From: Nostoc punctiforme PCC 73102
GTDB taxonomy: Bacteria; Cyanobacteriota; Cyanobacteriia; Cyanobacteriales; Nostocaceae
Assembly: GCF_000020025.1 (NCBI RefSeq)
Contig: NC_010628.1
Coordinates: forward strand, 6,570,001 to 6,602,000
Length of the DNA stretch: 32,000 nt
Direction: 5' to 3'
Shown one piece after another: positions 10,510 through 32,000 of the stretch. Every line of letters begins with the position of its first letter. The stretch's first letter is position 1. The translations under genes and the position numbers were made by a program. The notes below the pieces were generated by a model that saw only the letters and a program-made list of their open reading frames with translations, had not been told where the DNA came from and did not search any database.

Positions 10510-12123
10510 TTAAAAATCGAAGGTTGTACGAAGCACGCCCACGTACTGCGTATCATTTCTACTATCGTTTTCCGGGTTGAGAATCACCCAAAAACCAGGA
10601 GTTACTGAGATATTATCGTTCAGGCGGTAGCGATAGAATGCTTCAATATGGTAAGCTGTGTCTCGGTCTTGACGGATATCACTGTTAGAGACACGCGGCG
10701 GTATCCCAAAAAGAATTCCTGGCAGGTTGCCCTTACCGCCCACATCAGGAAACGACATACCAATCGCTCCAAACCAAGCATTGGCATTATCACCATTGTT
10801 CACGAACAGAGAATCTGTTCCACCCCTACCATTAGAAATATCGCTGAAACCAGAGTTTTTCGCATTTGCCCTGACATATCCGCCCCAAGAGTGTACCTGG
10901 AAATTTGGGGAAAAGCGATAGTATCCCTGTACGCCAACAATGCTATTGGAAGTAGCAATGTTATTTCCAAAGGGAGCATTTGACAGGGCGCTGCCTCTCC
11001 CGGCGTTAATATCTACAGTGCCAGCAGGATTATAACCATGAGAGTAGGCAATACCAATAGCTCCTTGTTCGCCGTAATATGCCAGGTGCGCTAGAGCATT
11101 GTAGCCGCCATCAAATAAGCCATTTTGTGCTGATGGAACGTTTGGACTATTTGCTAAATAGCCCAAGGTAAGAATCAAGTTTTTACTGATACTCCAATTA
11201 GCGGCTGCACCCCCACCACCTCGCTCGAAGAGGGGACTGTTTTTACCAAAGAGTGAGGGAATCCCATTACCATCATCAGCGATCGTGGCAGGAGTGATGT
11301 TGTTTGTGATGTCGTTGTAACCAATACCTGTGGGGCCAACAACGAAAGAAAGGGAATCACCAACGGGGAAGTAGTAACGTATGTGGGGAATTATTAGTGT
11401 ATTGTTGCTGTCATTGTCGAAATTGAGTCGTGTCATGCCTGTGCCAGTGGCTGCGGCAATTTGACTTGCACCATTAGAATTTGTAAAGTTGCCAAACTCC
11501 AGCCGTACTCGCAATAAATCTTTACCGGTGAAGCTACTCTCTAAGTTTAGACGACCTCGGTTTGCAAAATAGAGACGGGACTCATCGCGATCGCCACCTA
11601 CTCTATTACCAAAGGTATCACTAATGGCCGTAATAATTTGAGCATTCAACTTAGTAGTGGTGGAAAATTGCTGCTCCTCCAGCGTTGCTGTATGTGCTTC
11701 CAGGGTATCCACCCGGCCACGCAGAGTTGCCAATTCTGCTGCAAACTCTGTCTGCAAATTTTGCAGCACTGCCAAATCTTCTTTTTTGACCAAATCATTA
11801 GTACCCACAGCAATTAATTCATTCACCCGGTCTAAGCAGGCGTTTAAACCAGCAGCAAATTCATAACGACTCAAGGCACGATTACCGCGATAGGTTGCAT
11901 CAGGATAACCTGCAATACAGCCATAACGTTCGACTAGTGATTGCAGTGCTTGGAATGCCCAATCGCTCGGTTTGATGTCGGAAAGTTGGGAAACAGAATT
12001 TACTTGTCCCTGTAAATTTCTATCAGCATCTGCTGTACTCGAATCTTCTTCTGGAGGTGCTGCCCAAACTGCTGGAACTGCGAAAAATAGGATAAAAAAG
12101 CTATGCAGAAGAATTTTAATCAT
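10510..12123 (-). CDS. Outer-membrane porin with an N-terminal SLH domain, a coiled coil and an OprB-type carbohydrate-selective beta-barrel
   Basis: 537-aa ORF. Signal peptide ending VWA-AP. SLH motif SDWAFQALQSLVERYGCIAGYPDATYRGNRALSRYEFAAGLNACLDRV. Gly/Asn/aromatic-rich barrel ending in ...LRTTFDF. Confidence 0.88.
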   Translation of the reverse strand: MIKILLHSFFILFFAVPAVWAAPPEEDSSTADADRNLQGQVNSVSQLSDIKPSDWAFQALQSLVERYGCIAGYPDATYRGNRALSRYEFAAGLNACLDRVNELIAVGTNDLVKKEDLAVLQNLQTEFAAELATLRGRVDTLEAHTATLEEQQFSTTTKLNAQIITAISDTFGNRVGGDRDESRLYFANRGRLNLESSFTGKDLLRVRLEFGNFTNSNGASQIAAATGTGMTRLNFDNDSNNTLIIPHIRYYFPVGDSLSFVVGPTGIGYNDITNNITPATIADDGNGIPSLFGKNSPLFERGGGGAAANWSISKNLILTLGYLANSPNVPSAQNGLFDGGYNALAHLAYYGEQGAIGIAYSHGYNPAGTVDINAGRGSALSNAPFGNNIATSNSIVGVQGYYRFSPNFQVHSWGGYVRANAKNSGFSDISNGRGGTDSLFVNNGDNANAWFGAIGMSFPDVGGKGNLPGILFGIPPRVSNSDIRQDRDTAYHIEAFYRYRLNDNISVTPGFWVILNPENDSRNDTQYVGVLRTTFDF

Positions 12124-12252
12124 GGACTTATTTATGTGAAAATGGTTGAATTCTGACTTTGTAAGGAAAAAAATTACAGTCGAACAAAAGCTGCTAGCTT
12201 ATAAGCTGATCGGCATTAAAGTTAGATATTTTGAGTTGAAATTTTAGATTAC

Positions 12253-12815
12253 TTAAAGCAACGCTATGACTTTTTGCTCATTGCTGCTTTTAATAGCTGC
12301 TTCTATAATCCGCATTACATTAATTCCGTCTTCGGCAGTAACAGTAACTGGCTGATTATCAACAATAGATTTATATACCGCGTCGTAATAGCCTAAATAA
12401 CTGCCCTGTGAGCTTTTTACTTTTTCCCGAATTACTTTTGTGTCTTTTTCTGTATGCAGCAAGCCATATTCACTTTCTGGCTCTGTATACCAATCAAGTG
12501 TTGTTCTGCTTCTTTGACTGTTGTGGTAAATGCTTTTTCTACCACTACATGCTTGTCTGCCAATAAAGCCTGTTTAGTATAATCGTAATGTGTATAAGTT
12601 GGTGTATTTACCAACACTAGAATTACTCGCTCGTCGGCTAGCAATGCTTCCAAAGAAGGATAGCTTTTTACTTTCGGATAATCTTCCTGTATAAGATTTT
12701 TGCTTCTTTCCCAAGAGCCTGCTAATTGAAAACCGGGATGCAAATTAATAAACGGCGCATGAAATACCCTACCAGACAAACCATAAGAACAAAGAGCCGT
12801 ATTGAGAGTTTCCAT
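12253..12815 (-). pseudogene. Gfo/Idh/MocA-family oxidoreductase remnant (internal deletion plus frame change)
   Basis: An N-terminal Rossmann part (..VLVNTPTYTHYDYTKQALLADKHVVVEKAFTTTVKEAEQ) and a typical C-terminal end (..YDAVYKSIVDNQPVTVTAEDGINVMRIIEAAIKSSNEQKVIAL) lie in different frames. They are only about 560 bp apart, and the roughly 150-aa middle of the family is missing. Confidence 0.7.
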
Positions 12816-12895
12816 CTTTTTACTGATTGACTGAAGCGAAAGCTTGTATTTAGTTGTTGTTAGATGTTCCAGATAAAGTTTGCAGCATCAGGGCA

Positions 12896-12916
12896 GGCAA
12901 GATGCCCACCCCACAA
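12896..12916 (+). repeat. Short dispersed repeat GGCAAGATGCCCACCCCACAA, copy 2
   Basis: Matches 10005-10025. Confidence 0.5.
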
Positions 12917-13115
12917 AATTTACAGCAATCTTTTTTGATTTGAGACCAAATCCATTTGTATCGGAATTATTCTTCTCAGCGCCCTCAGCGTCTCTGCGGT
13001 TTTTTAATCATTCAGATGCTACTGAATTTGATTTGAAAAGTCGAAAATAATTTTTTTACAAATGATTCAGTTCAGAATTACAAATTAGGCAGCAGGGGCA
13101 TTAGGTAGATGTAAA

Positions 13116-14516
13116 TTACATGTCTTCCAACTCAATTCCTTTGGTTTCTTTAATAAAAAAGAGAATGAAAAAGAATGAGGTAGCCGCCGCAATTGTATAA
13201 AGTCCATAGGCAGAACCTAGACCGAAATATTGGAGTATGGGAGGAAATGTTGTGGAAATAAGGAAATTCGCAACCCATTGGATTGCAGCAGCAACTGAAA
13301 GTGCAGCCGCTCGAATCTTGTTATTAAACATTTCTCCCAACAACACCCAAACTATCGGCCCCCAGGAGAAACCGAAGCAAAACACGTAGAGGTTGGCGGC
13401 GATGAGAGCCACAGTCCCAGCGCTTCCGGCGAGGGAAGGATTTCCAGCAGCATCTAGGGGAGCATTACCAAAAATATAAGCCATTGTCCCCAAGGTCAGG
13501 GTCATGCCAATTGAACCTATTATTAGCAACGGCTTGCGACCAAATTTATCCACAAAGGCGATCGCAATCAGTGTTGTAATAATGTTGACGGCTCCTGTAA
13601 TCACCGTGATTGATAGGGAATCTTTTTCGGAAAACCCGACTGCCCGCCACAAAACACTACTGTAGTAAAAGATTACATTAATCCCAACAAATTGTTGTAA
13701 TACAGATAAGCCGATTCCTATCCAAACAATGGGGAGGAGTCCGCCACTTCTGCTTAAGAGGTCAGAAAATTTGGGTTGGCGTTCGCGAAGCACTGTCTGC
13801 CGAATTTCTTCGATTTTTGGCAGTACGTCACCTCCCAAAATCTTGGTCAGAACGTTAACAGCTTCTGATTCTCGTCCTTTGGCAACCAAATAACGGGGAG
13901 ATTCAGGAATTGTTAAAGCTACCATCCCGTAGAATACTGCTGGTGGGACTGCTGTCCAAAACATCCAGCGCCAAGCTGCAACCCCAAACAAAAACGGCGA
14001 GTCTGCTGAACCTGCTGACGTAGCGATAAAGTAGTCGCTCAATAAGGCAACGAAAATTCCCACTACGATCGCTAATTGTTGCAGAGATCCTAACCTTCCC
14101 CGCAAATGGGTAGGAGAACATTCCGCAATATAAGCTGGGGCGATTACGCTAGCAACGCCGATTCCAATCCCACCCAATACTCGCCAAAAGATAAAATCCC
14201 AAATTGTGAAGGCCATCCCAGAGCCAATGGCACTGATAGTAAACAACACCGAAGCGACCACCATTGCCTTGACTCGACCATAACGGTCTGCAATCTGTCC
14301 GGCAAAAAAGGCTCCTACCGCAGATCCTAGTAACGCGAGAGACACTGCCAGTCCTGTCACCCAACTACTGGTGTTAAAAGCTTTGGCTAATGATAAAACC
14401 GCGCCGTTAATCACAGCGGTATCAAAACCGAATAAAAACCCGCCGAGGGCAGCAGCACCAGCAATCAAAATGACATAAAACGTGTTGGATTTACGACGAA
14501 CAGTAGTAGAAGACAT
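13116..14516 (-). CDS. glcP: MFS sugar porter, GlcP-like glucose/fructose:H+ symporter
   Basis: 466-aa ORF with 12 predicted TM segments. Sugar-porter signatures GFLFGFDTAVINGA, DRYGRV, PESPRYL and KETKG. It is collinear with the Synechocystis/Nostoc GlcP sequence as I remember it. Confidence 0.85.
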   Translation of the reverse strand: MSSTTVRRKSNTFYVILIAGAAALGGFLFGFDTAVINGAVLSLAKAFNTSSWVTGLAVSLALLGSAVGAFFAGQIADRYGRVKAMVVASVLFTISAIGSGMAFTIWDFIFWRVLGGIGIGVASVIAPAYIAECSPTHLRGRLGSLQQLAIVVGIFVALLSDYFIATSAGSADSPFLFGVAAWRWMFWTAVPPAVFYGMVALTIPESPRYLVAKGRESEAVNVLTKILGGDVLPKIEEIRQTVLRERQPKFSDLLSRSGGLLPIVWIGIGLSVLQQFVGINVIFYYSSVLWRAVGFSEKDSLSITVITGAVNIITTLIAIAFVDKFGRKPLLIIGSIGMTLTLGTMAYIFGNAPLDAAGNPSLAGSAGTVALIAANLYVFCFGFSWGPIVWVLLGEMFNNKIRAAALSVAAAIQWVANFLISTTFPPILQYFGLGSAYGLYTIAAATSFFFILFFIKETKGIELEDM

Positions 14517-14616
14517 ATTTATAAATAGCTGTGATGAACTGCATATATCAAGGGAGATGAGGTAGTAGGGAGCAGAGGAGAGTAATTACTAACCAATGCC
14601 CAAAGACTTTGATTTT

Positions 14617-15615
14617 TTACCGTCTGGAACGTCTACGCAATCGATCAATCATTACTGCCAAAATAATTACTAGTCCTTTGACGACTAGTTGCCAGAAGTA
14701 AGATAGGTTCAACAAGGTTAAACCGTTGTTGAGAATAGCAATGATTAATGCACCTAAAAGAGTGCCGCCAATGGTACCAATACCACCTGTAAAGCTGGTT
14801 CCACCAAGAATAACAGCTGCGATCGCATCTAATTCGTAACCTTGACCCAATATGCCACTGGCACTATATAGACGGCTGGCGCTCATGATTCCTCCTAAGC
14901 CTGCCAGTAATCCGCTAATACCATAGACAAATAGCAAGACACGATTAACTTTAATCCCAGTTAATCTGGCTGCCCGTTCGTTACCTCCTACGGCATATAT
15001 CTGCACTCCTAAAACAGTTTGCCGCAGCACAAACCAGCTAGCGATTACGGTCAGTAGGGCAATGATTACTAACCACGGCAGAGGCCCGACGTAACTATTA
15101 CCCACCCAAGCAAAATTGATATCTCGGTTAATCAGTGTTGTACCCTTCGCAATCAGAAATGCCACACCCCGCAAGGCTGTAAGTGAACCTAACGTCACAA
15201 TAAAAGGTGGCACATCCAAGAAGGTGATGAGAGCGCCGTTGACTAAGCCTAAAAGCAATCCTGCCAACAATGCAGCAGGTACAGCCGCCCAACTTAAAGC
15301 CGGCAATAGCGATACCAGCAGTCCAACTACGGCAGAAACGGCCAATATTGACCCAACTGATAGGTCAATACCTCCGGTGAGAATTACAAAGGTCATTCCT
15401 GTCGCCAGCACAATATTGATTGATGCCTGACGCAAGATATTGACGATGTTACCGCCGGTGAGAAAGTTGGGAGAAAGGAATGCAAATAAGATGCAGATAA
15501 TTACTAGGATTGGCAGAATACCAGCAACTTCCAGCAGAGTGCTGATTGATTTCCGGTTGCGAGCTGCGGAATTGTTGGCTGATTTATTGATAGGCGGTCT
15601 GACTGTCTGACTCAT
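14617..15615 (-). CDS. Sugar ABC transporter permease (RbsC/FrtC-like)
   Basis: 332-aa polytopic ORF. 4-nt overlap with the upstream ATPase gene. Typical monosaccharide (CUT2) permease composition. Confidence 0.88.
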
Positions 15616-17174
15616 AATGCTGATACCTCCGATGCTCCAGTTGCGTAGTGCATAATCTTTTCTTGGGTGATTTCTTTGCCAAGGCTGCCGTCTAGTTCGC
15701 CTACCAGTTGTCCTTCTCGCATCACTAAGACGCGATCGCTCATACCGACAATCTCTGATAGTTCGCTGGAAACCATTAAAATAGCAACACCTTGTGCTGC
15801 CAATTCACTCATAATTCGGTAAATTTCGCTTTTGGCACCAATATCTACGCCGCGTGTCGGCTCATCTAACATCAGTACTCTAGGTTTAATGGCTAACCAA
15901 CGCGCTAGCAGTAGCTTCTGTTGATTCCCACCAGAAAGATCCAATGCTCTAATTTCCAAATTGGCCAGGCGGATATTAAAGTTTTCCACCGCTTCTGTTG
16001 ACAGCCGATTCACTGAAGGCCAGTTAACAATTCCACCTTTAGCATCCTGCTTGAGTGTGTTGATAGCAATATTCTTGCGGGCGCTCATCTCTAGAAATAA
16101 ACCTTGGTCTTTGCGGTCTTCCGGGACATAGCCAATTCCGGCAGCGATCGCATCACTGGGCGTATTAATTTCTAGTTTTTTGCCATTTAAAAATACTTCG
16201 CCACTAGCTTTACGGTCAGCACCAAAAATTAGCCGGGATAATTCTGTGCGTCCTGCACCAACTAACCCCGCTAAACCGAGAATTTCCCCTGCATGAAGTT
16301 CAAAGCTAGCAGGCTCAATCTTTTTGCGAGCATCACTCATGTTTCTGACTTCCAGCACCACAGGGCCAGGATTCATTTGCCGTTGATGTTCGTAAAAGTC
16401 TTGCATGGAGCGACCAACCATCATCTGCACCAATCGCTGTGGAGAAATTTCGCTGCGTGTAAGACTACCAATATATTGACCATCGCGCAGTACGCTAATC
16501 CGGTCAGCTAAAGCATAGATTTCTTCCATACGATGACTGATGTAAATAATCGCAATGCCATCACTCCGTAGTTTGCGAATTACTTCGAATAAATGGTCGC
16601 TCTCGCGGTCAGATAATGCTGCTGTTGGCTCATCCATCACCAAAACCCGGCTTTTATCTTTCAGCGCTCTGGCAATTTCGACTTGCTGCTGTTCTGCGAT
16701 GGATAAAGTCCCAACTATAGTCTGCGCTGTAAAATTGGCTCCCAAGCTATCTAACACTTGCTCTGCTTCAAGTTGCATGGCTTTGCGGTCTAAAAACTGA
16801 CCCCGACGCAACTCGCTACCCATAAACATATTTTCGGTAACGGTTAAATTAGGTGCAACATTCAGTTCTTGATAAATAAGATTAATACCCGCCTTGCGTG
16901 CTGTCGCCGGATCGGTAATTTTCAAGGGTTGACCATTGATGCGAATTTCTCCTTCATCAGCAATGTAAGCTCCAGCCAAGATTTTCATCAATGTGCTTTT
17001 GCCTGCCCCGTTTTCACCCATCAGGGCATGAACTTCTCCCGGATAAATCGTGAGATTAACATTTTGGAGCGCAGATACACCATGAAATCGTTTGGTAATC
17101 CCTTGCATTTCTAATACAGGGGTGGTGCTTGGTGCATCAGGAAATGAGGTTTCTATACTTGTTGCCATGAACAT
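15612..17174 (-). CDS. Sugar ABC transporter ATP-binding protein with duplicated ATPase domains (RbsA/FrtB-like)
   Basis: 520-aa ORF. Two Walker A motifs ([18 protein letters not shown]), two signature motifs ([15 protein letters not shown]) and two Walker B motifs ([16 protein letters not shown]). Confidence 0.92.
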
Positions 17175-17415
17175 CTCCTGTAAAAAAAATTTGAAAGTCG
17201 CAATTTGTGAGTTAGAAATTAATCAACTCACATCTGATGTGAAATTAAAAGCATCAGAAAATCATGTTTTAAAAAGCGATTACTATCTTGGGAAGTTCTG
17301 AATATTGAAAGGCAATATATCAGAACTTTCTACAACTGCACATATATACATCATGGGTATGTGCAAAAACTATGTCAATGTACCTAAAGACTCAACTCAG
17401 ATCGAACATTATTCT

Positions 17416-17441
17416 TAATAATTGTAAATTTACAATTATTA
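17416..17441. repeat. Perfect 26-bp AT-rich palindrome TAATAATTGTAAATTTACAATTATTA, 3 nt downstream of the binding-protein stop codon
   Basis: Read directly; it is self-complementary about 17428/17429. It may be an intercistronic hairpin or a protein-binding site. Confidence 0.5.
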
Positions 17442-17444
17442 TTA

Positions 17445-18467
17445 CTATTTCCAGCCTTTTTCTGTGCCGACGTTATCTTTTGTGATCAGCTTTACTGGAA
17501 TTAAAATGGTGGGATTAGTAGGTTTTTTCCCATTCAAAATGTCGTTTCCAACCTGAACTGCTTTTTCGGCCATCCCTCGCGGATTTTGAGTAGCGGTTGC
17601 AGCATATATACTATCTTTAGCTGCGATCGCAGTGATTGCTTCTGGCGCACCATCAACCCCGACAATAAAAAAATCTTTACGTTGTGCTTGGTTAGCTGCT
17701 AGTTCTGCACCAACTCCACTCGGATCGTTGATGGCAAAAACTGCATCAATTTTTGGGAAGGTGGTGAGCAAATCAGTCATAACTCTCAGTCCTCCATCCC
17801 TGCTACCTTCTGCATTCTGGTTTTTGGAGAGGATTTTGATATCGGGATATTTGGACAGTACACTCTCGCAGCCACTAACTCGTTGAATCACCGAGTCTAC
17901 TGGTGGGCCATTAACTATTACTACATTGCCTTTACCTTTGAGGCGATCGGCAATATATTTACAACTAACTTCTCCAGCTTGGACATTATTAGTAGTGATG
18001 GTGGCATCCACGCCTCCCTCAGCACCAGTATCTACCGCAATGACAATTCTACCCGCTTGTTTCGCTTTTTCAATCGCTGGTTTAATGCCACTTTTATCAG
18101 CAGCATTGACGATAATAATGTCAGTATTGGAAGCAGTGAAATTTTCAATTTGATTGGATTGTTGATTCAGATCGTAAGCACTGGAAACTACAGTTACATT
18201 GACATTATTACCCCCAATTTTCTTGGCTTCTGCCTCAGTTGCTTGTCCCATGAGAACGAAGAAAGGGTTACTTAAATCGCCAACTGTGAAGGCAACGGAT
18301 CGTAACTTTGAATTCCCAGTGGCAGTTTTTGTTTCTGCACTAGTATTTGTAACGGGTTTTGTATCGGGGTTAGTAGCACTGTTGTTATCGGGAGAAGCAT
18401 TTGTACAGCCGACAACTCCACCACTGATGATACCTAGTATGCTAGCTGCGATCGCAATTCTTTTCAT
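17445..18467 (-). CDS. Sugar ABC transporter substrate-binding lipoprotein (type I periplasmic binding protein, RbsB/FrtA-like), paralogue 1
   Basis: 340-aa ORF. Lipobox GGVVGC. Collinear with and highly similar to the adjacent 331-aa paralogue. Confidence 0.88.
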   Translation of the reverse strand: MKRIAIAASILGIISGGVVGCTNASPDNNSATNPDTKPVTNTSAETKTATGNSKLRSVAFTVGDLSNPFFVLMGQATEAEAKKIGGNNVNVTVVSSAYDLNQQSNQIENFTASNTDIIIVNAADKSGIKPAIEKAKQAGRIVIAVDTGAEGGVDATITTNNVQAGEVSCKYIADRLKGKGNVVIVNGPPVDSVIQRVSGCESVLSKYPDIKILSKNQNAEGSRDGGLRVMTDLLTTFPKIDAVFAINDPSGVGAELAANQAQRKDFFIVGVDGAPEAITAIAAKDSIYAATATQNPRGMAEKAVQVGNDILNGKKPTNPTILIPVKLITKDNVGTEKGWK

Positions 18468-18505
18468 CTTTATCTATTTCCTAAAGTTAATTAAATTTTT
18501 CTTAT

Positions 18506-19501
18506 TTACCAGCCTTTGTAGCTGCTGAGGTTATCTCTAGTAACCAAGTTGACTGGAATCAGAATGTCAGGTGACTCAGGTTTGTTACCCTGGATGATAT
18601 CGTTGCCAATCTGAACCGCTTTTTCAGCCATCCCTGCGGGATTTTGAGCCGCAGTTGCAGCAAATACACCATCTTTGTCTTCCATTGCTTTGGTTGCATC
18701 TGGCGAACCGTCAACCCCAACAATAAAAAATTCTTTGCGTTTTGCTTGTCTTGCGGCTAAGTCTGCACCTACACCGCTTTGATCGTTCGTGGCAAAAACG
18801 GCATCTATTTTGGGAAAGGTTGTAAGTAAATCACTCATTACTCTCAAACCTCCATCCCTTGTCCCTTCAGCGTTTTGGTCTTTAGAGATGAGTTTGATAT
18901 CAGGATATTTGGCTAATGACTTTTCACAACCACTGACTCGCTGATTGATTGAATCCATCGGCGTACCGTTGAGGATGACTACACTACCTTGACCTTTGAT
19001 GCGATCGGCAATATATTGACAAGCAACTTCACCAGCTTGGGTATTGTTGGAGCTAATCATTGCATCTACGTCTGCATCAACGGCTGAATCTACGGCAATG
19101 ACAATCTTACCTGCCAGCCTTGCTTGGTCAATTACTGGCTTAACTCCTTTTTTATCAACAGCGCTGAGGATAATTAAATCAGTATTTGCAGCAGTAAAAT
19201 TTTCGATTTGGTTGCTTTGTTGGTTCAAATCAAAGCCACTGGAAACCGCATTAACTCTAATATTACCGCCAATTCTCTTAGCTTCTATCTCCGCACCCTT
19301 TTGCACTGCATTATAAAAAGGGTTTCCCAAGTCACCCAAGGCGACACCGATTGTTTGTAATTTTCTACTTGGACTATTAACTGTAGTCTCTAAACTAGTG
19401 TTGGTAGCAGTATTAGTAACAGAATTGTTATTTTGAGCGCTATTTGTGCAACCAACAACAGTCAAACTTAATATGCCAACTATGAGCGAAAGTGTCTTCA
19501 T
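18506..19501 (-). CDS. Sugar ABC transporter substrate-binding lipoprotein, paralogue 2
   Basis: 331-aa ORF. Lipobox LTVVGC. It shares blocks with paralogue 1 (NQQSNQIENFTA.NTD, QAGEV.C.YIADR.KG.G.VVI.NG.P.DS..QRVSGCE, YPDIK..SK.QNAEG.RDGGLRVM.DLLTTFPKIDAVFA.ND). Confidence 0.88.
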   Translation of the reverse strand: MKTLSLIVGILSLTVVGCTNSAQNNNSVTNTATNTSLETTVNSPSRKLQTIGVALGDLGNPFYNAVQKGAEIEAKRIGGNIRVNAVSSGFDLNQQSNQIENFTAANTDLIILSAVDKKGVKPVIDQARLAGKIVIAVDSAVDADVDAMISSNNTQAGEVACQYIADRIKGQGSVVILNGTPMDSINQRVSGCEKSLAKYPDIKLISKDQNAEGTRDGGLRVMSDLLTTFPKIDAVFATNDQSGVGADLAARQAKRKEFFIVGVDGSPDATKAMEDKDGVFAATAAQNPAGMAEKAVQIGNDIIQGNKPESPDILIPVNLVTRDNLSSYKGW

Positions 19502-20057: not shown

Positions 20058-20954
20058 TTAAAATTTTAACGTTGCGGGTAAATATTTAGCTACTAAATCT
20101 TCGTAGTATGGTCTTAACTTTTGCCAATCGGGAGGAGTAGGATTTTTTGAATACAAATCATAAGGATTGAATAATTTAACCCATTTAAACATTTCGCGAT
20201 CGTGATTATCCATCAAATGCTTATATGCGTTTTCGCGGTGTTGAGGATAAAATGAGTGATAGCGAAGCATATACAATGCAGGTTCAGGTAAATAGTTTTT
20301 CATCATCTGATAAAAATATTCATCGTGACCCCATGAAATATGTACATTAATCAATCCACAATTTGGTTCGTAAATACCATATTTAGTGTTGTAATTGGGA
20401 TTATTGTAATCAGGATTTTCTTGGAAAAATTCTGAAAAAACAATTTTATCAGAGAATGCACAACCTACAGGATAAGTATCACCGACGGTAGCCCATTGAG
20501 GCTCACCAAATAGACAAAGTACCTTCCCCATATCGTGAAAGAAGCCGGTAAGTACCATCCAATCAGGATGACCATCGGCGCGTATGGCTTCTGATGTTTG
20601 CAATAGATGCTGTAACTGATCCATCTCTGTATCGGGATCTGAATCATCTACTAATTGATTCAAAAATTCAACTGCATCCCAAACAGACATTTCTTTTTTA
20701 TCAAACTTGAGAAAATTCTTTTCTTTCTCAAGGACAAAATTATATGTTTGATTAATATGATTTAACCGATAAAATTCTTTTACCGTTTCTCTGGTAGGCG
20801 TTTCATAATTTCTGTACTCTTGAGTAGTTTTACCTTCTTTAACTATGCTATGTGGATCGGGGTAGCGATTAAGTAAGTCTTCTTCCCACTCTTCTAACGA
20901 ATGTAACGGATTGTATTGAGCTTGTTTGATAAAATTCTGGAGAATTTGAGACAT
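20058..20954 (-). CDS. myo-Inositol oxygenase (MIOX family, HD-type di-iron oxygenase)
   Basis: 298-aa ORF, collinear with animal MIOX as I recall it. Motifs: DDSDPD, GFFHDMGKVLCLFGEPQWATVGDTYPVGC, SWGHDEYFYQ, LRYHSFYP, KLRPYYEDL. Confidence 0.9.
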   Translation of the reverse strand: MSQILQNFIKQAQYNPLHSLEEWEEDLLNRYPDPHSIVKEGKTTQEYRNYETPTRETVKEFYRLNHINQTYNFVLEKEKNFLKFDKKEMSVWDAVEFLNQLVDDSDPDTEMDQLQHLLQTSEAIRADGHPDWMVLTGFFHDMGKVLCLFGEPQWATVGDTYPVGCAFSDKIVFSEFFQENPDYNNPNYNTKYGIYEPNCGLINVHISWGHDEYFYQMMKNYLPEPALYMLRYHSFYPQHRENAYKHLMDNHDREMFKWVKLFNPYDLYSKNPTPPDWQKLRPYYEDLVAKYLPATLKF

Positions 20955-21600: not shown

Positions 21601-21607
21601 ACCTCTT

Positions 21608-21988
21608 ATGTCAGAGCAACCTGCATCAGAAATCGAACTGCTCCGTGCGGCTTACGCGGCCTTCAACGCGCGAGACATTGACGCGGCCCTTGCCCTCATG
21701 ACTCCGGACGTGGCTTGGCCGAAAGCGTTCAAAGGCGGTTTTGTCCGTGGGACTGAAGAAGTTCGCGCTTACTGGACGGAGCAATGGAGCGAGATCAATC
21801 CGCACGTCGAGCCGGTTTCCTTTTACTCGGAGGAGGCCGGACGCATTTTGGTCGATGTGCATCAGGTCGTGCGTGACTTGGTTGGAGGAGTTCTTGCCGA
21901 TGAACACGTGGGTCATCGATTCACCCTTGAGCAGGGGTTGATTCAAGTCATGGAAGTCTGTCCACTTCCATCGTCCATCCCAAATTGA
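21608..21988 (+). CDS. SnoaL-like / NTF2-fold protein (DUF4440-like)
   Basis: 126-aa ORF. N-terminus IELLRAAYAAFNARDIDAALALMTPDVAW.. is typical of SnoaL-like polyketide-cyclase-fold proteins. GC content is strikingly higher than in the flanks. Confidence 0.7.
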   Translation: MSEQPASEIELLRAAYAAFNARDIDAALALMTPDVAWPKAFKGGFVRGTEEVRAYWTEQWSEINPHVEPVSFYSEEAGRILVDVHQVVRDLVGGVLADEHVGHRFTLEQGLIQVMEVCPLPSSIPN

Positions 21989-22124
21989 CGGTAAACTAAA
22001 ACGGTTGAAAGCATTAATAATATCCCGAATCGCTGCCTCAATTTTCGGCGTACTGAATATGGCGACTCAATGCCCTATAGACAATTCATCTGTTGGATCG
22101 ATTTTTGAATAAATAACGTTATTC

Positions 22125-22228
22125 ACACATTAGACATCTCCGAAAAAGAATGTAGAGACGCAGCAGTGCTACGTCTCTACAAGGTTTCTGTGTAACGCAT
22201 ATTTAATTTCTGGAGATGTCTATTAGTA
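22125..22228. repeat. Nested-hairpin short repeat element (outer arms TAGACATCTCC/GGAGATGTCTA, inner arms GTAGAGACG/CGTCTCTAC)
   Basis: Outer arms at 22131-22141 and 22212-22222. Inner arms at 22152-22160 and 22172-22180. The GTAGAGACG...CGTCTCTAC type resembles Nostoc intergenic repeats. Confidence 0.5.
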
Positions 22229-22270
22229 AAATCTATGTTAAATTTTTTGTCCGCTTGACTTTGAGGAATG

Positions 22271-22594
22271 TTACGTTGTCAATTCTATGGTGGATGAATG
22301 CTTGACAATATTAGCTAACTCTTGAAGTTGTTTTACTGCTTCTGCACCCTCCAACTTCATTAATTCGCGATCGTCCCATAATTCCATCCATGTAATTCCG
22401 TAATCAGACACTACAAAACGGATCAGATGCTTTTCTCGCAGGCTAACCATAAATGAAGCACTCTTCATTTGGTCGCCGCACGTATAACATGAGGCAGAAT
22501 ACCCACGCCGCTCAAGAATAATTGTCAAGGCTTGTAAGTTCATTACCAAGTCTTGAACGAATTCTCGATGTTGTTGCGCTAATCTTAGAAACAC
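22271..22594 (-). CDS. Hypothetical protein
   Basis: 107-aa ORF on the same strand as gntK and downstream of it. I recognised no motif. The start may be the internal MNLQAL. Confidence 0.35.
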   Translation of the reverse strand: MFLRLAQQHREFVQDLVMNLQALTIILERRGYSASCYTCGDQMKSASFMVSLREKHLIRFVVSDYGITWMELWDDRELMKLEGAEAVKQLQELANIVKHSSTIELTT

Positions 22595-22731
22595 TAGTTT
22601 TCTCCTACCACTACTGTGAGGTGGTTCCTTTTAAAACTTCTTTAGACTTACATCCGACGTATTTAGTTGCCAAAAGTTCGTGTTTTCTTAGAGACGTGAT
22701 TAATCTTAATCTTATGGTTTTAACCAATCAG

Positions 22732-23241
22732 CTAAAGTCTCAAAGCCGTTCTAATATTCTGGACAATGATCTGGGGTGGTTGTGCGACATCTATAGATAT
22801 GGTGTCTAATGGTTCTTCAAGAGTATCAAACTGGCTATTGAGAAGTTTTTCGCTCATGTAATGATTGCTACGCTCTTGCAACCGCATTTGAATTAACTCA
22901 TAAGACCCTTTGAGGTAAACTAGCTTAATGCGATCGCTCTTGGCGTTGGTGCAGCGATCGCTATCCGATACCAAAAATTGCCGATAGCTGTCTTTTAAAG
23001 CCGAACACGCCAGCACTACATTTTTATTTTCTTGCAGCCAATGTTTGATGGCTGTTTGCAAATCTTGCAACCAAGGCATCCTGTCAGCTTCAGTCAACGG
23101 GATACCGCGCCGCATTTTATCAACATTCTCTGGTGAGTGGAAACTATCAGCGTCACTAAACTCCCAGCTTAAAGAGTCTGCTAGCAGTTTTCCTATGGTG
23201 GTTTTACCAGAACCAGATACACCCATGACGATAATAATCAT
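22732..23241 (-). CDS. gntK: Gluconokinase (GntK/IdnK family)
   Basis: 169-aa ORF. P-loop GVSGSGKTT. Motifs F.DADSFH, DRMPWL, ACSALK..YR and YLKG are collinear with E. coli GntK. Confidence 0.9.
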   Translation of the reverse strand: MIIIVMGVSGSGKTTIGKLLADSLSWEFSDADSFHSPENVDKMRRGIPLTEADRMPWLQDLQTAIKHWLQENKNVVLACSALKDSYRQFLVSDSDRCTNAKSDRIKLVYLKGSYELIQMRLQERSNHYMSEKLLNSQFDTLEEPLDTISIDVAQPPQIIVQNIRTALRL

Positions 23242-23416: not shown

Positions 23417-24445
23417 ATGAATAAACGAAGAATTTCAATTGAAGATATTGCTCGGAGAGCAGGTGTATCTCATTCCACAGTTTCACGTGCTTTGCGGGAT
23501 AATGCTCTCATTAGCCCGAAAGTACGAGAAGAAATTAAGCAACTGGCGCAGGAGATGAACTATGTGCCAAATGCTATAGCTCAAAGTTTGCAAAATAAAC
23601 GTACTAATACCATTGGTGTAGTAGTAACTTCCATTGCAGATCCCTTTTTTGCTGAAGTAGTAGACGGTATTGAACAGATAGCCAGACCAGCCGGATTGAG
23701 TGTTTTGTTAAGTGCTTCACACCGAGATTTGGAGCAGGAAATAGCAGCTATTGATACCTTTCATCGCCGCAGAGTAGACGGAATCTTAGTAGCCGACTCA
23801 CGAATTAGCAAACAACATACAAAGCAACTAACGCAAATTGCTGTGCCAACAGTTCTGATTAACAGCCAGACTGAAGATCAATCCGAAATACTTCACTCAG
23901 TAGCAATAGACGATCGCTTAGGCGCTAGATTAGCAACAGAGCATTTAATAAGTTTGGGACACACCAGCATTGGTTATTTGGGTGTAAGCGATCGCAGCAG
24001 GTCAAACCACCAGCGCCTAGAAGGATATAAAATGGCTCTTGCTGAAGCTGGTTTACCACAAAATCCTGATTGGGTTGCAATTAGTGACGAATATGATACC
24101 AGAATCAGCGATGTCGCCACCGGGCAAAATATGCTATCTAAACTATTGATTGCTGAGGTAACAGGCATCTTTTGTTACAACGATATGGTGGCAGTTGGCG
24201 CTCTTTTAGCTTGCCAAGAACTAGGTATTTTAGTGCCACGAAATTTAAGCCTGGTTGGATTTGATGGTATTGCTTTAGGTAGTTACGTTACACCGGCACT
24301 TACAACAGTCAGCCAGCCGATGTTAGAAATTGGTGGCTATGCCATGCAAATGTTAATCGATTTATTAGCAGACAAAGCTGTGGAAAACCGCGTTTTATCT
24401 CCTTTTCTCGTAGAGCGTGGTAGTAGTGCCAGATTAATAAAGTAA
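23417..24445 (+). CDS. LacI/GalR-family transcriptional regulator
   Basis: 342-aa ORF. N-terminal HTH ISIEDIARRAGVSHSTVSRALRD and YVPNAIAQSLQ. The C-terminal part resembles a periplasmic-binding-protein-like sugar-binding core. Confidence 0.92.
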   Translation: MNKRRISIEDIARRAGVSHSTVSRALRDNALISPKVREEIKQLAQEMNYVPNAIAQSLQNKRTNTIGVVVTSIADPFFAEVVDGIEQIARPAGLSVLLSASHRDLEQEIAAIDTFHRRRVDGILVADSRISKQHTKQLTQIAVPTVLINSQTEDQSEILHSVAIDDRLGARLATEHLISLGHTSIGYLGVSDRSRSNHQRLEGYKMALAEAGLPQNPDWVAISDEYDTRISDVATGQNMLSKLLIAEVTGIFCYNDMVAVGALLACQELGILVPRNLSLVGFDGIALGSYVTPALTTVSQPMLEIGGYAMQMLIDLLADKAVENRVLSPFLVERGSSARLIK

Positions 24446-24596: not shown

Positions 24597-26015
24597 ATGT
24601 TAACTAAAAAACCGGTTTTATCTCCCGATCGCTGCTTTTCTCCAGAACCAGTTCAAAGACGACTAGCTCATCAATTCTTTGACAGCATATCTGCATTACC
24701 TTTGGTCTGCCCACACGGCCACGTAGATCCAGCCCTATTAGCTAATCCAGCAGCCCGTTTTGGTTCACCAACCGAATTATTTATTATCCCTGACCACTAC
24801 ATTTTGCGGATGCTTTATAGTCGGGGCGTTCCTTTGGAAGCTTTAGGCATACCTACTCGTGATGCACCAACAGAAACTGACCATCGGAAAATCTGGCAAT
24901 TGTTCGCCGAACATTTTTATTTATTCCAAGGTACTCCATCTGGGTTGTGGCTCAAAGACGAACTAACTAATGTCTTTGGGGTGGATGAAGCATTAAATTC
25001 TCGTAATGCTGGACGTATCTATGATTATCTAGAAGGTTTATTAGCCTTACCTAAGTTTTCCCCACGTGCTTTATTCAAACGCTTTAACATTGAAGTGCTT
25101 TGTACTACCGATGCAGCCAGTGATAACCTAGAGAATCAGCGATCACTCCACGAAGAAGGTTTCACTCAAATTAGACCGACTTTTCGACCAGATGCAGTAG
25201 TTAACCTAGATGCTCCTGGTTGGCGGGAAAATCTCACCAAATTGGAAAGCAGTATCGGTAGAGAAATTAGCAGTTATGCTACTTTTGTGCAAGCTTTAGA
25301 AGAACGTCGGGCTTTCTTTAAAAAAATGGGTGCAACAGCTACCGATCAAGGTGCAGCTACGCCTTATACCACAAGTCTTTCTGACCAAGAAGCAGAAGCT
25401 ATCTTTGCCAGAGCATTAATCGGCAAACTGAATCCAGGAGATGTAGAGCAGTTTACCGGTCATATTTTCATGGAAATGGCTCGGATGAGTGTAGAAGATG
25501 GTTTGGTGATGCAAATGCATTGTGGTGTTATGCGTAACCATAACCCAGCTCTGTTTGAGAGATTTGGATCTGATAAAGGTGCTGATATTCCCCTCAATAT
25601 AGAATGGACTCGAAATCTGCACCCATTATTGTCATCTTATGGGAACAATCAGCGCTTCCGTTTAATTATTTTTGGTATGGATGAAAGCACTTATAGCCGA
25701 GAGATGGCTCCGCTAGCTGGTCATTATCCTACTATATTGCTCGGGCCGCCTTGGTGGTTTCACGACAGCGTAAATGGCATGGAACGCTACTTCAATCAGG
25801 TAATGGAAACTGCCGGAATTTATAATACTGCTGGGTTCAATGATGATACCCGAGCTTTCGTTTCTATTCCAGCCCGTCATAATGTTTGGCGGCGGGTAGC
25901 TTGTAATTGGTTAGCTGGATTAGTAACACGGGGATTAGTTGACGAAGAGGAAGGGTATGATATGGCCCGCGCTTTAGCTTACGACCTTGCTAAAAGTGCT
26001 TACAAATTAGACTAA
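24597..26015 (+). CDS. uxaC: Glucuronate isomerase (uronate isomerase, UxaC family)
   Basis: 472-aa ORF. Motifs: N-terminal ..LVCPHGHVDP, central MQMHCGVMRNHN, C-terminal LLGPPWWFHDSVNGMERYF ... FNDDTRAFVSIPARH. Confidence 0.85.
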   Translation: MLTKKPVLSPDRCFSPEPVQRRLAHQFFDSISALPLVCPHGHVDPALLANPAARFGSPTELFIIPDHYILRMLYSRGVPLEALGIPTRDAPTETDHRKIWQLFAEHFYLFQGTPSGLWLKDELTNVFGVDEALNSRNAGRIYDYLEGLLALPKFSPRALFKRFNIEVLCTTDAASDNLENQRSLHEEGFTQIRPTFRPDAVVNLDAPGWRENLTKLESSIGREISSYATFVQALEERRAFFKKMGATATDQGAATPYTTSLSDQEAEAIFARALIGKLNPGDVEQFTGHIFMEMARMSVEDGLVMQMHCGVMRNHNPALFERFGSDKGADIPLNIEWTRNLHPLLSSYGNNQRFRLIIFGMDESTYSREMAPLAGHYPTILLGPPWWFHDSVNGMERYFNQVMETAGIYNTAGFNDDTRAFVSIPARHNVWRRVACNWLAGLVTRGLVDEEEGYDMARALAYDLAKSAYKLD

Positions 26016-26248: not shown

Positions 26249-27085
26249 ATGTCAGATTTGATTTTAAATAAACTTTTTAGCCTAAAAGATCGGGTAGCAG
26301 TAGTCACAGGCGGTTCTGGTGTACTTGGTGGAGCAATGGCAAAGGGTTTAGCCCTTGCTGGAGCGCGGGTAGTCGTTCTAGGCCGCAATGAAGCACGGGC
26401 GAGTGCAGTAGTAAGTGATATTACTGCTAACGGTGGAGAAAGTATGGCTGTACTGGCAGATATTAGCGATCGCTCCCAATTAGAAATCGCTAGGGAAGCT
26501 ATTATACAGCGTTGGGATCAGATAGACATCTTGGTAAACATGGCCGGTGGTAATATTCCTGCTGCCACAATTACCCCTGATGCCACTATTTTTGATATGC
26601 CACATACAGCTTTTGAGGAAGTAGTTAGCCTCAACTTACTCGGTACTCTATTGCCTAGCCAAGTTTTTGGTCAAGCAATGGTCGAAAGAAATCAGCCATC
26701 TGGTTGTATTGTCAATATTTCTTCTATGTCTGCCATTCGGGCGATCAGCCGCGTGGTTGGCTACTCAGCCGCTAAAGCCGGGATAGATAACTTTACTCGT
26801 TGGTTAGCCGTCGAACTTGCCCAAAAGTATGGGGATGGAATGCGAGTAAATGCGATCGCGCCAGGTTTCTTTATTGGGGAACAAAATCGAGATTTACTCC
26901 TAAATGCAGATGGCAGTTTGACCGAACGCGGGCAAAAAATTATCGAGCATACCCCCGCCGGACGTTTCGGCAAACCGGATGAATTACTCAGTACCTTGAT
27001 TTGGTTATGCAGTTCTGGTTCTAGTTTCGTCAACGGGGTAGTTATACCAGTAGACGGTGGGTTCAGTATCTACAGTGGAGTTTAA
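26249..27085 (+). CDS. Short-chain dehydrogenase/reductase; candidate fructuronate reductase / D-mannonate oxidoreductase (Bacillus UxuB/YjmF-like)
   Basis: 278-aa ORF. Cofactor motif VTGGSGVLGG. Catalytic S...YSAAK. The function is inferred from size, type and context. The SDR family call is secure (about 0.9); the substrate call is about 0.5. Confidence 0.8.
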   Translation: MSDLILNKLFSLKDRVAVVTGGSGVLGGAMAKGLALAGARVVVLGRNEARASAVVSDITANGGESMAVLADISDRSQLEIAREAIIQRWDQIDILVNMAGGNIPAATITPDATIFDMPHTAFEEVVSLNLLGTLLPSQVFGQAMVERNQPSGCIVNISSMSAIRAISRVVGYSAAKAGIDNFTRWLAVELAQKYGDGMRVNAIAPGFFIGEQNRDLLLNADGSLTERGQKIIEHTPAGRFGKPDELLSTLIWLCSSGSSFVNGVVIPVDGGFSIYSGV

Positions 27086-27087
27086 TC

Positions 27088-28350
27088 ATGTATTCACTGG
27101 CTGTAAATAACGGAACACTTTCCGACGAGCAAATTTCTGGGCTAGTTCATCAAGCTTTGGCAGACCGTCAGTTAGATGGACAGCGTATTTTAATATTAAT
27201 TCCAGATGGCACTCGTACTGCTCCCATCCCTCAAATATTTCGATTGCTGCATCAGGAGTTGGGTAAAAGAGTTCCGGCTCTAGATTTTTTGATCGCTCTG
27301 GGTACACATAATCCTATGAGTGAAGAACAGATTAATCACCTAGTGGGGGTGACACCAAAAGAGCGAGAGACAACCTTTAAAAAAGTTCGCATATTTAACC
27401 ACCTGTGGAATGAGCCAGATACTTTTATTTCCTGTGGAGTAATTTCGGCAGATGAGATAGCAGAAATTAGCCGAGGAATGCTACATCAGTCCGTTGAAGT
27501 CCGGGTTAACAAGCTTGTAACACAGTACGATCTAATAATGATTTGCGGTCCTGTATTTCCCCACGAAGTTGTCGGTTTCTCTGGTGGAAATAAATACTTT
27601 TTTCCCGGTATTGGGGGTCAGGAAGTAATTGATATATCTCACTGGTTGGGCGCTTTAATAACCAGTTACGAAATCATTGGTACATCGGGAATAACACCAG
27701 TTCGGCGCTTGATTAACCGAGCCGCTAACCTAATTTCTACACCGAAACTTTGCTTGGCGATGGTGGTTGCACCTAAAACAAATCAGCTAGCAGGACTTTA
27801 CATAGATAAACCAGAGTCAGCCTGGGAAGCCGCCGCAAAATTATCCGACAAACTGCATATTACTTATGTAGATCGGTCTTTTAAACAAGTGCTTTCAGTA
27901 ATGCCCGAAATGTATGATGACATTTGGACAGCCGCGAAAGGAATGTACAAGCTAGAGCCAGTAGTAGCTGACGGAGGCGAAGTAATTATATATGCCCCTC
28001 ACATTACTGAGTTTAGCTACACACACGGTGAAATTCTGTCTCAAATTGGCTATCATGTGCGGGATTATTTCCTCAAGCAGTGGGATAAATTTCAAGCCTA
28101 TCCCGGTGGAGTGCTGGCTCATAGTACTCACTTAAAAGGTATGGGTACATTTGATTTTACAGAAGGGGAAAAAGCGCGGATTCGCGTCACTTTAGCCACT
28201 GGTATTTCTGCTGAACGCTGTGCTGCTCATAATTTAAACTATCGCGATCCAGCTACCATTAGACCCACAGAATGGGCTAACCGTGAGGATGAAGGTATCT
28301 TACTTGTGCCGAAATCTGGTGAAATATTATACCGTTTAATACAAGCGTAG
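27088..28350 (+). CDS. LarA-family (DUF2088, lactate-racemase-like) nickel-pincer-dependent 2-hydroxyacid racemase/epimerase; candidate D-mannonate/D-gluconate 2-epimerase
   Basis: 420-aa ORF whose start lies 2 nt after the SDR stop. Motifs: IPDGTR, LGTHNP, FPHEVVGFSGGNKYFFPG, and DISH 16 residues after the Lys. Confidence 0.8.
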   Translation: MYSLAVNNGTLSDEQISGLVHQALADRQLDGQRILILIPDGTRTAPIPQIFRLLHQELGKRVPALDFLIALGTHNPMSEEQINHLVGVTPKERETTFKKVRIFNHLWNEPDTFISCGVISADEIAEISRGMLHQSVEVRVNKLVTQYDLIMICGPVFPHEVVGFSGGNKYFFPGIGGQEVIDISHWLGALITSYEIIGTSGITPVRRLINRAANLISTPKLCLAMVVAPKTNQLAGLYIDKPESAWEAAAKLSDKLHITYVDRSFKQVLSVMPEMYDDIWTAAKGMYKLEPVVADGGEVIIYAPHITEFSYTHGEILSQIGYHVRDYFLKQWDKFQAYPGGVLAHSTHLKGMGTFDFTEGEKARIRVTLATGISAERCAAHNLNYRDPATIRPTEWANREDEGILLVPKSGEILYRLIQA

Positions 28351-30725: not shown

Positions 30726-30984
30726 AGCCCATATCCTTTTAAAAAATATAAAAATTCATCTTATCTCGTCAAACTTTTTAATGGTTAATTATTAAACACC
30801 ATTTGTATATTATTAGCACCTTTAAAAAACATATATTTTTATTTCAATAATTATAAAAAGTTACAATTTTAGGTATAGGATATTTCAAGTTTATAAAATA
30901 CAAAATAACCCATCTACGATGTCGTGAACTTTTCTATTGTAAAGGTAAAAATATGCTTTATTTACTTATAAAGTGCTGTATAAA

Positions 30985-32000
30985 CTATTTATTTGGCATT
31001 CTCCTTAACAAAGGTAATTTCAAATAACCTACCTGGCGCTCAATCGTCTCCTCACTAACACCAAGGTATTGAGCAATTTCTGTAAAATTCAATGCTCGAT
31101 TTTGCCATAACATTTTCAAAGCATATTCCCAGGCATAACCGTATTCTATTTTCTTTGTTGCTATTGGTACTTGATACTTATTAATTATATCAAAATCTCT
31201 GTTGAAAGAGACAAAATCACAAATACAGCAAAATTCAGTTACAGCTTTAGTGCTGTTACTATAGTCTGTATGTTGGTATTTATCCTTAATTAATAGCTGT
31301 TGAAAATATTCACCCCCTCGATTGATGCATGGACAATATTCTGTTCCAAAAGGCTTATACTTCAAAGAAGTCTTAAAAAAATATTCCACTGTAGATTCAA
31401 AAAAGATAATCAACAATAAATGACGTAAAGGATGTCTTATTTTGCCATCTAAAATAAACATGTCTATAAGCCAGTTACTATGTCTAGCAAAATCACATTG
31501 AAGCATTTTTAGAAATGGAGGAGAGTAGTATTCTCTAAAATCATTGATAAGTTTAGCTAACGATTTTTTATCTTTAAAATTAAACTCTCCATATTTTTTG
31601 TATAACAGTTTTATATAAATTTTACGTACAGAATCTCCAAAAAAAATGGCATTTGGATACTTTAGAAGCCAATCAACATTATGAGCTAATTGTATAAAAT
31701 ATTTTAAATTGACATCTGATAATTCTAAATAATTATTTATCTTGGTCTTTACTGCTTCTTCTGCTGAAACTAATCCACAATAGTGATGACCTGTTCCTAG
31801 CTCAGTTTTTTGTAGAATAATGTTATGTATTAGACAAACTTCGACTCCAGGAACTTGATGTATGCGATGCCAATAGCATTCACCAAATTGCTTTTATCTT
31901 CTAATATACATTGAGGACAAAAACGTAAATAATTCATATTTCTCATAAAATTTTCAAAACGATTTAAAGTAACTTCTGGATTATTTTGTTTTATTGCATC
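30985..32000 (-). pseudogene. tniQ: Second, shorter TniQ/TnsD-family paralogue. It is frameshifted and its N-terminus lies beyond the window.
   Basis: Hand translation in frame A (32000 to about 31893) gives DAIKQNNPEVTLNRFENFMRNMNYLRFCPQCILEDK. Frame B (31893 to 30985) gives KQFGECYWHRIHQVPGVEVCLIHNIIL...HPLRHLLLIIF...EIAQYLGVSEETIERQ...*. Together these are collinear with residues of about 95-430 of the 643-aa paralogue. An in-frame TAA lies at 31894-31896 of frame B. Confidence 0.75.

Follow-up and report, generated by a model that had tools for sequence, protein, structure and literature searches.

The hrm locus of Nostoc punctiforme

The subject of this analysis is a gene at positions 27088-28350 (+) of a 32,000-nucleotide stretch of Nostoc punctiforme PCC 73102 DNA (RefSeq assembly GCF_000020025.1, contig NC_010628.1, forward strand 6,570,001 to 6,602,000), the whole of which is called the window below. 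Its open reading frame (ORF) begins with ATG and encodes a 420-residue protein of the LarA family. A preliminary description made from the DNA letters had recognized a LarA-type protein in a hexuronate context, and that context is indeed present in the form of neighboring genes for UxaC and a D-mannonate oxidoreductase; a uronate context had already been tabulated for the relevant group of LarA homologues (PMC7583248). What the description overlooked is that the gene is hrmA and that the family membership of its product is already published. hrmA is the last gene of the hrmRIUA hormogonium-regulating operon of N. punctiforme (PMC5987646). The order hrmR-hrmI-hrmU-hrmA, with hrmA last, matches the published description, as do unk1 (SnoaL) and unk2 (DUF1815). 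Since the window carries, gene for gene, the hrm locus of Gagunashvili & Andresson 2018, the LarA homologue is HrmA. The features of the locus are as follows.

27088..28350 (+): hrmA = Npun_F5335, LarA-family gene (LarA homologue, LarAH, group 19, GntE1 type), predicted nickel-pincer nucleotide (NPN)-dependent D-mannonate/D-gluconate 2-epimerase (ORF, Pfam, structure 4NAR, Dataset S2 of Desguin et al. 2020, gene order)
26249..27085 (+): hrmU, short-chain dehydrogenase/reductase (SDR)-type D-mannonate oxidoreductase (fructuronate reductase) (NCBIfam NF006132, 393.7 bits against a cut-off of 281)
24597..26015 (+): hrmI, glucuronate isomerase (UxaC) (Pfam UxaC, 268.9 bits; NCBIfam NF002794, 488.8 bits against a cut-off of 387)
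23417..24445 (+): hrmR, LacI-family repressor (Pfam LacI and Peripla_BP_3; literature)
22732..23241 (-): hrmK, GntK/IdnK-type gluconokinase, divergent from hrmR (NCBIfam TIGR01313, 155.2 bits against a cut-off of 113.75)
22271..22594 (-): unk2, DUF1815 protein (ORF; Pfam DUF1815 in loci L003-L005; literature)
21608..21988 (+): unk1, SnoaL-like protein (ORF; Pfam SnoaL_2 on the same gene in loci L003 and L004; literature)
20058..20954 (-): hrmE, myo-inositol oxygenase (Pfam MIOX, 366.8 bits; named hrmE, inositol oxygenase, in PMC5987646)

Thus UxaC, the D-mannonate oxidoreductase, the gluconokinase and MIOX each score above a curated cut-off or have a strong Pfam score. The stop codon of hrmU lies 2 nt before the ATG of hrmA, with a GGAG upstream. 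Among the scanned window ORFs of at least 150 codons, none belongs to the UxuA, KdgK or KdgA families, that is, mannonate dehydratase, 2-keto-3-deoxygluconate (KDG) kinase and aldolase. A scan for terminators and promoters 3' of hrmA gave a weak minus-strand terminator-like site as its sole outcome, which is uninformative.

Residues, fold and family of HrmA

The motifs of HrmA lie in the ORF translation where the preliminary description had placed them: PDGTR at residues 39-43, GTH at 72-74, FPHEVVGFSGGNK at 157-169 (which contains H159 and K169) and H185. Pfam Lar_N (PF09861) matches the protein with 78.5 bits (E = 5e-22; cut-off 23.3). Using MAFFT, we aligned HrmA with LarA of Lactiplantibacillus plantarum (LarA_Lp, the full sequence from a plasmid-borne larABCE operon), GntE2 of Thermotoga maritima, GntE1 of Corynebacterium glutamicum and other group 18 and 19 sequences. 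The distances from H159 to K169 (10 residues) and from K169 to H185 (16 residues) equal those between H174, K184 and H200 of LarA_Lp; both the spacings and the LarA numbering given at the outset proved right. The alignment also returns the published GntE2 equivalents R41, K164, H180, E155, S156 and G286 (PMC7583248), which validates it.

Every catalytic and NPN-binding residue falls in register, with D40, R43, H74, H159, K169, H185 and K284 of HrmA standing opposite D72, R75, H108, H174, K184, H200 and K298 of LarA_Lp. On the cofactor side these are K169 (the NPN-tethering K184), H185 (the nickel-ligating H200) and R43 (Arg75), and on the catalytic side H74 and H159 (H108 and H174), D40 (D72) and K284 (K298). 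All seven are invariant across 52 homologues of 63-90% identity. Their codons lie as follows (alignment to LarA_Lp, GntE1 and GntE2).

27205..27939 (+): span of the active-site and cofactor codons
27205 (+): start of the D40 codon
27214 (+): start of the R43 codon
27307 (+): start of the H74 codon
27562 (+): start of the H159-E160-V161 codons
27592 (+): start of the K169 codon
27640 (+): start of the H185 codon
27925-27939 (+): W280-T281-A282-A283-K284

The closest solved structure to HrmA by sequence is 4NAR, the apoprotein of a D-gluconate 2-epimerase (E = 1e-61, residues 31-417 of HrmA aligned with 29-422); lactate and malate racemases come next. This match and that of Lar_N are well outside what chance would give. 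A structure model, which the preliminary description had proposed as a check, was built with AlphaFold2 (pLDDT 88.2, pTM 0.87) and superposes on 4NAR with a template-modeling (TM) score of 0.89 and a root-mean-square deviation of 2.3 Å (Foldseek). At E ≤ 0.001 the model has 19 matches in the PDB, all of them LarA-family proteins, with TM scores of 0.58-0.78 for the LarA and Mar2 structures; matches outside the family have E values of 4e-3 or worse.

The assignment to a group can be read directly from the literature. Npun_F5335 of N. punctiforme is filed as 'Group 19, G2E2' in Dataset S2 of Desguin et al. 2020 (PMC7583248), and its stored residues (the first 399) are identical to those of HrmA in the window. 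This identity assigns the window to N. punctiforme PCC 73102, and through it HrmA had already been placed in the LarA family, with its catalytic residues tabulated; neither its superfamily membership nor its catalytic residues nor the uronate context of the group is therefore new. In groups 18-20 alike, a loop reads E-V/S, helix alpha-11 contains a Trp and alpha-14 has a small residue (PMC7583248). HrmA carries the group 19 signature, with an E-V loop, W-T-x-A-K in alpha-11 and L-A-S-T-H in alpha-14, and its listed 20-residue signature (D R H H E V K H V W T A K G L A S T H K) differs from that of GntE1 at two positions, L for I and K for R. Overall identity is 47.5% to GntE1, 34.2% to GntE2, 29.5% to a group 18 member and 21% to LarA_Lp, and ranges from 47.5 to 64.7% among the aligned group 19 members.

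Two enzymes of this part of the family have been characterized. T. maritima LarAH20/GntE2 and C. glutamicum LarAH19/GntE1 convert D-mannonate to D-gluconate, and do so only with NPN; GntE1, an NPN-dependent D-gluconate 2-epimerase, is the sole member of group 19 that was tested (PMC7583248). The same authors concluded that LarAH groups such as 19 bind NPN. By analogy, the substrates suggested at the outset for screening, D-mannonate and D-gluconate, would be apt, being those of the activity demonstrated for the group 19 and group 20 enzymes. Likewise, the view that the protein is an NPN-type enzyme and not a degenerate DUF2088 protein is probably correct, as judged from the residue register, the modeled fold and the published group 19 listing. 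In Table S1 of PMC7583248 the neighbors of group 19 genes include LarE (33%), LarB (33%) and LarC (19%), as well as glucuronate isomerase (24%), LacI (24%), mannitol/altronate dehydrogenases (19%) and SDRs (19%).

The public names of the HrmA clade are 'lactate racemase domain-containing protein', 'DUF2088' and even 'nickel-dependent lactate racemase'. This vagueness arises because no NCBIfam model covers group 19: for the group 19 LarA homologues no model reaches its cut-off, and the naming of the clade is thus an annotation gap in which the RefSeq names are uninformative. The best NCBIfam match of HrmA itself is the group 18 model (NF052594, NPN_18_hexonate), which was rejected at 199.8 bits against a cut-off of 500.

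Cofactor genes, relatives and surroundings

The preliminary description had found no lar accessory genes in the window, and tblastn with LarB, LarC and LarE likewise gave no match there. The NPN of HrmA would be supplied by LarB, LarC and LarE encoded elsewhere in the genome, and we consider it unlikely that these genes are missing there. According to Turmo et al. 2024, larB, larC and larE occur widely among cyanobacteria, and those of Synechocystis produce functional NPN; the same paper states that 'most cyanobacteria lack LarA-like proteins'. When L. plantarum LarB, LarC and LarE were compared by tblastn with PLSDB, there was no Nostoc plasmid among the matches listed, in which the only cyanobacterial genus was Pseudanabaena (LarB). 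From the Pseudanabaena LarB we moved stepwise to a Chroococcidiopsidaceae LarB and from there to a Nostocales LarB, and many LarB proteins of cyanobacteria came to light in this way. The genome-scan matches listed include LarB genes of Nostoc paludosum, another Nostoc sp., Anabaena and Dolichospermum, and none of N. punctiforme; the Nostoc LarB cluster has 202 members, and none of the 15 listed is labelled PCC 73102. An HrmA orthologue and LarB occur together in Desmonostoc muscorum CCALA 125, Nostoc sp. CreGUA01 and Tolypothrix bouteillei, and in the last of these each is recorded on a 9,494,340-bp contig. Neither larC nor larE was found within 10 kb of the examined cyanobacterial larB loci. 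The larB gene of Pseudanabaena sp. PCC 7367 (L008 5977-6774) lies on pPSE7367.01, a 329-kb conjugative plasmid, with no larC or larE nearby; its neighbors are phycoerythrobilin-synthesis genes and a phage terminase.

Outside the cyanobacteria, group 19 genes do occur beside the cofactor genes. In Embleya sp. NBC_00896 (NZ_CP108777.1 134726-149922) a 50%-identical group 19 LarAH is accompanied by UxaC, larB, larE, a mannitol-dehydrogenase-family reductase, larC and LacI. The LarAH gene sits between larB-larE and larC, and its stop codon overlaps the larC start. The Embleya replicon is linear, 3.1 Mb long, listed as a plasmid in PLSDB and almost without annotation.

The module is conserved in T. 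bouteillei, where ABC transporter genes, two binding proteins, MIOX, GntK, LacI, UxaC, SDR and LarAH follow in the same order. In N. punctiforme, MIOX and the gluconokinase are separated by about 1.8 kb (20955-22731) holding the SnoaL-like, DUF1815 and 84-aa ORFs; in T. bouteillei the two genes are directly adjacent (L089 4946-6503), so the module does not always include the unk genes. The SDR-LarAH pair is kept in a Chloroflexia genome at 65% and 71% identity, and that SDR passes the mannonate oxidoreductase model. The HrmA orthologue of Saccharobesus lies under a gluconokinase annotation. Nostocales relatives of HrmA are 84-91% identical, and the nearest named ones beyond them belong to Chloroflexota (Chloroflexia, Roseiflexaceae, Thermomicrobiales; 65-71%), not to other cyanobacteria. 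The literature places the hrm locus in Nostoc clade II and its sister clade only. Because of this confinement, and because Chloroflexota hold the nearest outside relatives as an hrmU-hrmA pair, hrmUA looks laterally acquired.

A 69%-identical HrmA homologue on an 11.26-Mb contig (L093 5681-11263, ERZ25039485) has a GFO_IDH_MocA oxidoreductase and an AP_endonuc_2 TIM-barrel protein as neighbors, with a further Lar_N protein, a weak match, at a distance of 3 kb. No UxaC or gluconokinase is present at that locus, so the substrate of this homologue may differ from that of other members of the clade.

Beside the hrm genes the window carries a set of linked sugar-uptake genes, identified from Pfam and NCBIfam and named after the literature.

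10510..19501 (-): sugar-uptake genes, overall span
10510-12123 (-): oprB porin
13116-14516 (-): glcP, major facilitator superfamily permease
14617-15615 (-): frt ATP-binding cassette (ABC) permease
15612-17174 (-): frt ABC transporter ATPase
17445-18467 and 18506-19501 (-): two ABC binding proteins

In the 1-kb gap between oprB and glcP (12124-13115) no ORF reaches 150 aa; the 2018 Nostoc paper (PMC5987646) places a pseudogene of mviM (inositol 2-dehydrogenase-like) between these genes in PCC 73102. Upstream of the sugar locus, with no evident link to it, lie a heavy-metal-type two-component pair (CopS/CopR-like, 5649-7142 and 7139-7822) and a homologue of the NADAR/riboflavin-intermediate N-glycosidase (5034-5504). 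About 440 bp downstream of hrmA is a Tn7-like element (28794-31506, -), which continues past the window (L001 2715-10874). The part within the window encodes a 643-aa TnsD/TniQ protein and a 173-aa TnsD fragment; the part beyond it encodes TniQ, a TnsC-like AAA protein, TnsB (with its N-terminus as an ORF of its own, of 60 aa) and TnsA. The tnsD end of the element, not the tnsA end, faces hrmA. In Tolypothrix its position is taken by unrelated genes (AMIN, Macro domain).

Proposed pathway, alternatives and known systems

We propose that HrmA is a group 19 NPN-dependent epimerase acting in the direction D-mannonate to D-gluconate within a route from inositol to 6-phosphogluconate, and give this a probability of roughly 0.6; the substrate, the loading with cofactor and the link to hormogonia are what we infer beyond family and fold. 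By homology, NPN would be tethered to K169 and its nickel ligated by H185, with R43 as a further contact to the cofactor. NPN would transiently take a hydride from C2 of the bound hexonate, while H74 and H159, on opposite faces, would take and return the hydroxyl proton, D40 and K284 being the other conserved catalytic residues. Return of the hydride to the opposite face of the 2-keto intermediate would invert C2 and so convert D-mannonate into D-gluconate. In the pathway as a whole, HrmE would oxidize myo-inositol with O2 to D-glucuronate, HrmI (UxaC) would isomerize this to D-fructuronate, HrmU (the SDR) would reduce it to D-mannonate, HrmA would epimerize D-mannonate to D-gluconate, and HrmK would phosphorylate the latter to 6-phosphogluconate, which would feed the oxidative pentose-phosphate or the Entner-Doudoroff route. 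The branch usually taken, through mannonate dehydratase and KDG, would thereby be bypassed. We read the HrmA step in this way because only then does the gene set form an unbroken chain.

What is known of hrmA comes from studies of symbiosis. A transposon insertion that lowers hrmUA expression leads to more hormogonium-dependent infection of Anthoceros, and a plant extract containing hormogonium-repressing factor induces hrmUA (Cohen & Meeks 1997/Campbell et al. 2003, both as related in PMC5987646). In the 2018 paper hrmA is 'unknown' in the main text; the paper's supplement mentions a similarity to lactate racemase and gives no function, and its orthologue tables have no Lar entries (PMC5987646). 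A 2021 review still says that hrmA has no homologue. In the searchable literature we found no main-text link of Nostoc or hormogonia to lactate racemase or the nickel-pincer cofactor, and text searches with Npun_F5335, NpF5335 and other locus tags returned no matches. An explicit reading of HrmA as the epimerase that completes a route from inositol or glucuronate to 6-phosphogluconate was not found stated in the literature; we regard it as a modest and testable synthesis.

Several points weigh against this assignment. The Km of GntE1 for D-mannonate is 120 mM, and its authors suspect another native substrate, a uronic or aldaric acid (PMC7583248). In vitro, it is galacturonate and not glucuronate that frees HrmR from DNA, and Campbell et al. 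2003 held that the locus makes a signaling metabolite and does not serve catabolism (both as reported in PMC5987646). The substrate lid of HrmK has symbiont-specific substitutions (PMC5987646), so HrmK may not be a plain gluconokinase. The ABC transporter beside the locus is described as a fructose system, not one for inositol or uronate. Finally, in these searches no larC or larE of a Nostoc came to light; the case for these two genes comes from Turmo et al. 2024.

A rival reading is that HrmA is an NPN-dependent C2 epimerase of another sugar acid, either an aldarate (D-glucarate/D-mannarate) or a galacturonate-derived hexonate (altronate), whose product is an intracellular hormogonium-repressing signal and not a catabolic intermediate. 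The weak affinity of GntE1 for mannonate and its authors' proposal for group 19, the galacturonate response of HrmR with the metabolite-inhibitor model of Campbell et al., and the altered HrmK lid all speak for such a substrate. Nevertheless, we consider it unlikely, if a serious contender. The chain of neighboring enzymes is unbroken only with mannonate to gluconate as the HrmA step, and the same pathway logic was proposed, and then verified, for T. maritima GntE2 (PMC7583248). In addition, HrmU passes the D-mannonate oxidoreductase model, the HrmU-HrmA pair is retained outside the symbiotic lineages, in Chloroflexia, and the Saccharobesus orthologue is found under a gluconokinase annotation. 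The co-occurrence of MIOX, UxaC, mannonate oxidoreductase and gluconokinase without a dehydratase gives independent support to mannonate and gluconate as physiological substrates of group 19 despite the Km of GntE1.

That HrmA might be a cofactor-less or degenerate DUF2088 protein, or bind a ligand other than NPN, and lack epimerase activity has a precedent in LarAH groups 12, 13 and 16, whose members do not have the catalytic residues and which Desguin et al. left aside (PMC7583248). For HrmA we judge this very improbable: HrmA has all seven catalytic and cofactor residues, none of which varies among the homologues, the fold is intact, orthologues are embedded among larB, larE and larC, and the gene is associated with a mutant phenotype and induced by plant extract (as cited in PMC5987646). 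A true lactate racemase, as the common superfamily and the source annotations (RefSeq; IMG 'nickel-dependent lactate racemase') would have it, is scarcely credible, given 71.9 bits against a cut-off of 460 with the model for lactate racemase proper (NF033504, Ni_dep_LarA), the low identity to LarA_Lp, substrate-side residues that differ (the aromatic F175/F176 loop replaced by E160/V161, and Y294/Q295 by W280/T281), and the lack of lactate racemase activity in both GntE1 and GntE2 (PMC7583248).

If HrmA is the mannonate/gluconate epimerase, it would be a cyanobacterial NPN client, and a locus of symbiosis control would require nickel and larBCE. The candidates for the plant repressing factor would be narrowed to inositol, glucuronate or a related uronate. 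How such a pathway could repress hormogonia is a matter of speculation; flux into the oxidative pentose-phosphate pathway, an intermediate acting as a signal, or removal of the inducer may each be envisaged. In a wider and more tentative version, to which we give somewhat less than even odds, HrmA closes an NPN- and nickel-dependent shunt from inositol or glucuronate to 6-phosphogluconate whose flux, or whose mannonate or gluconate, lets the plant hormogonium-repressing factor return Nostoc from motile infection filaments to vegetative growth. In that version nickel and larBCE would be needed for controlling the infection of plants, a block at fructuronate or mannonate would underlie the hyper-infective hrmUA phenotype, and HrmA would be the first NPN client identified in cyanobacteria, most strains of which are said in the NPN field to possess larBCE without a LarA-like protein. 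The value of the proposal lies in joining the symbiosis and NPN literatures, which do not cite each other: the symbiosis field has carried hrmA without a function since 1997, and the GntE result of 2020 would make the hrm locus a complete and chemically explicit pathway.

Compared with known systems, the locus is the same as the published hrm locus (hrmE, unk1, unk2, hrmK, hrmR, hrmI, hrmU and hrmA, with frt, glcP and oprB beside it), in whose literature HrmA is given no function (PMC5987646); here it receives a predicted one. With L. plantarum LarA (5HUQ), HrmA shares the fold (TM about 0.70) and, in register, the Lys tether, the His ligand, the Arg, two His, the Asp and the Lys; however, the two proteins are only 21% identical, the pocket of HrmA is polar and roomy where that of LarA is aromatic, and LarA is encoded in an operon with larBCE. 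GntE2 (TM0442 of T. maritima, 4NAR) has the same catalytic and NPN residues and the same proposed role, from mannonate through gluconate to the pentose-phosphate pathway. It nevertheless belongs to another group (20), is 34% identical, thermophilic and has a Km of 17 mM, and its E-S loop, G286 and alpha-14 motif N-A-A-V-I-N-R contrast with E-V, A283 and G-L-A-S-T-H-K in HrmA. GntE1 of C. glutamicum is closer, a member of the same group 19 with 47.5% identity, a near-identical signature and a uronate-type context documented for the group, whereas HrmA is encoded beside MIOX and gluconokinase at a symbiosis locus of a cyanobacterium, has no adjacent larBCE and has a predicted activity. Finally, the first two steps of the Ashwell pathway (UxaC-UxuB-UxuA-KdgK-KdgA), isomerase and fructuronate reductase, involve the same chemistry as those encoded by hrm. 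The entry into the hrm route, in contrast, includes myo-inositol oxygenase, and its proposed exit is a C2 epimerization followed by gluconokinase, not dehydration to KDG.

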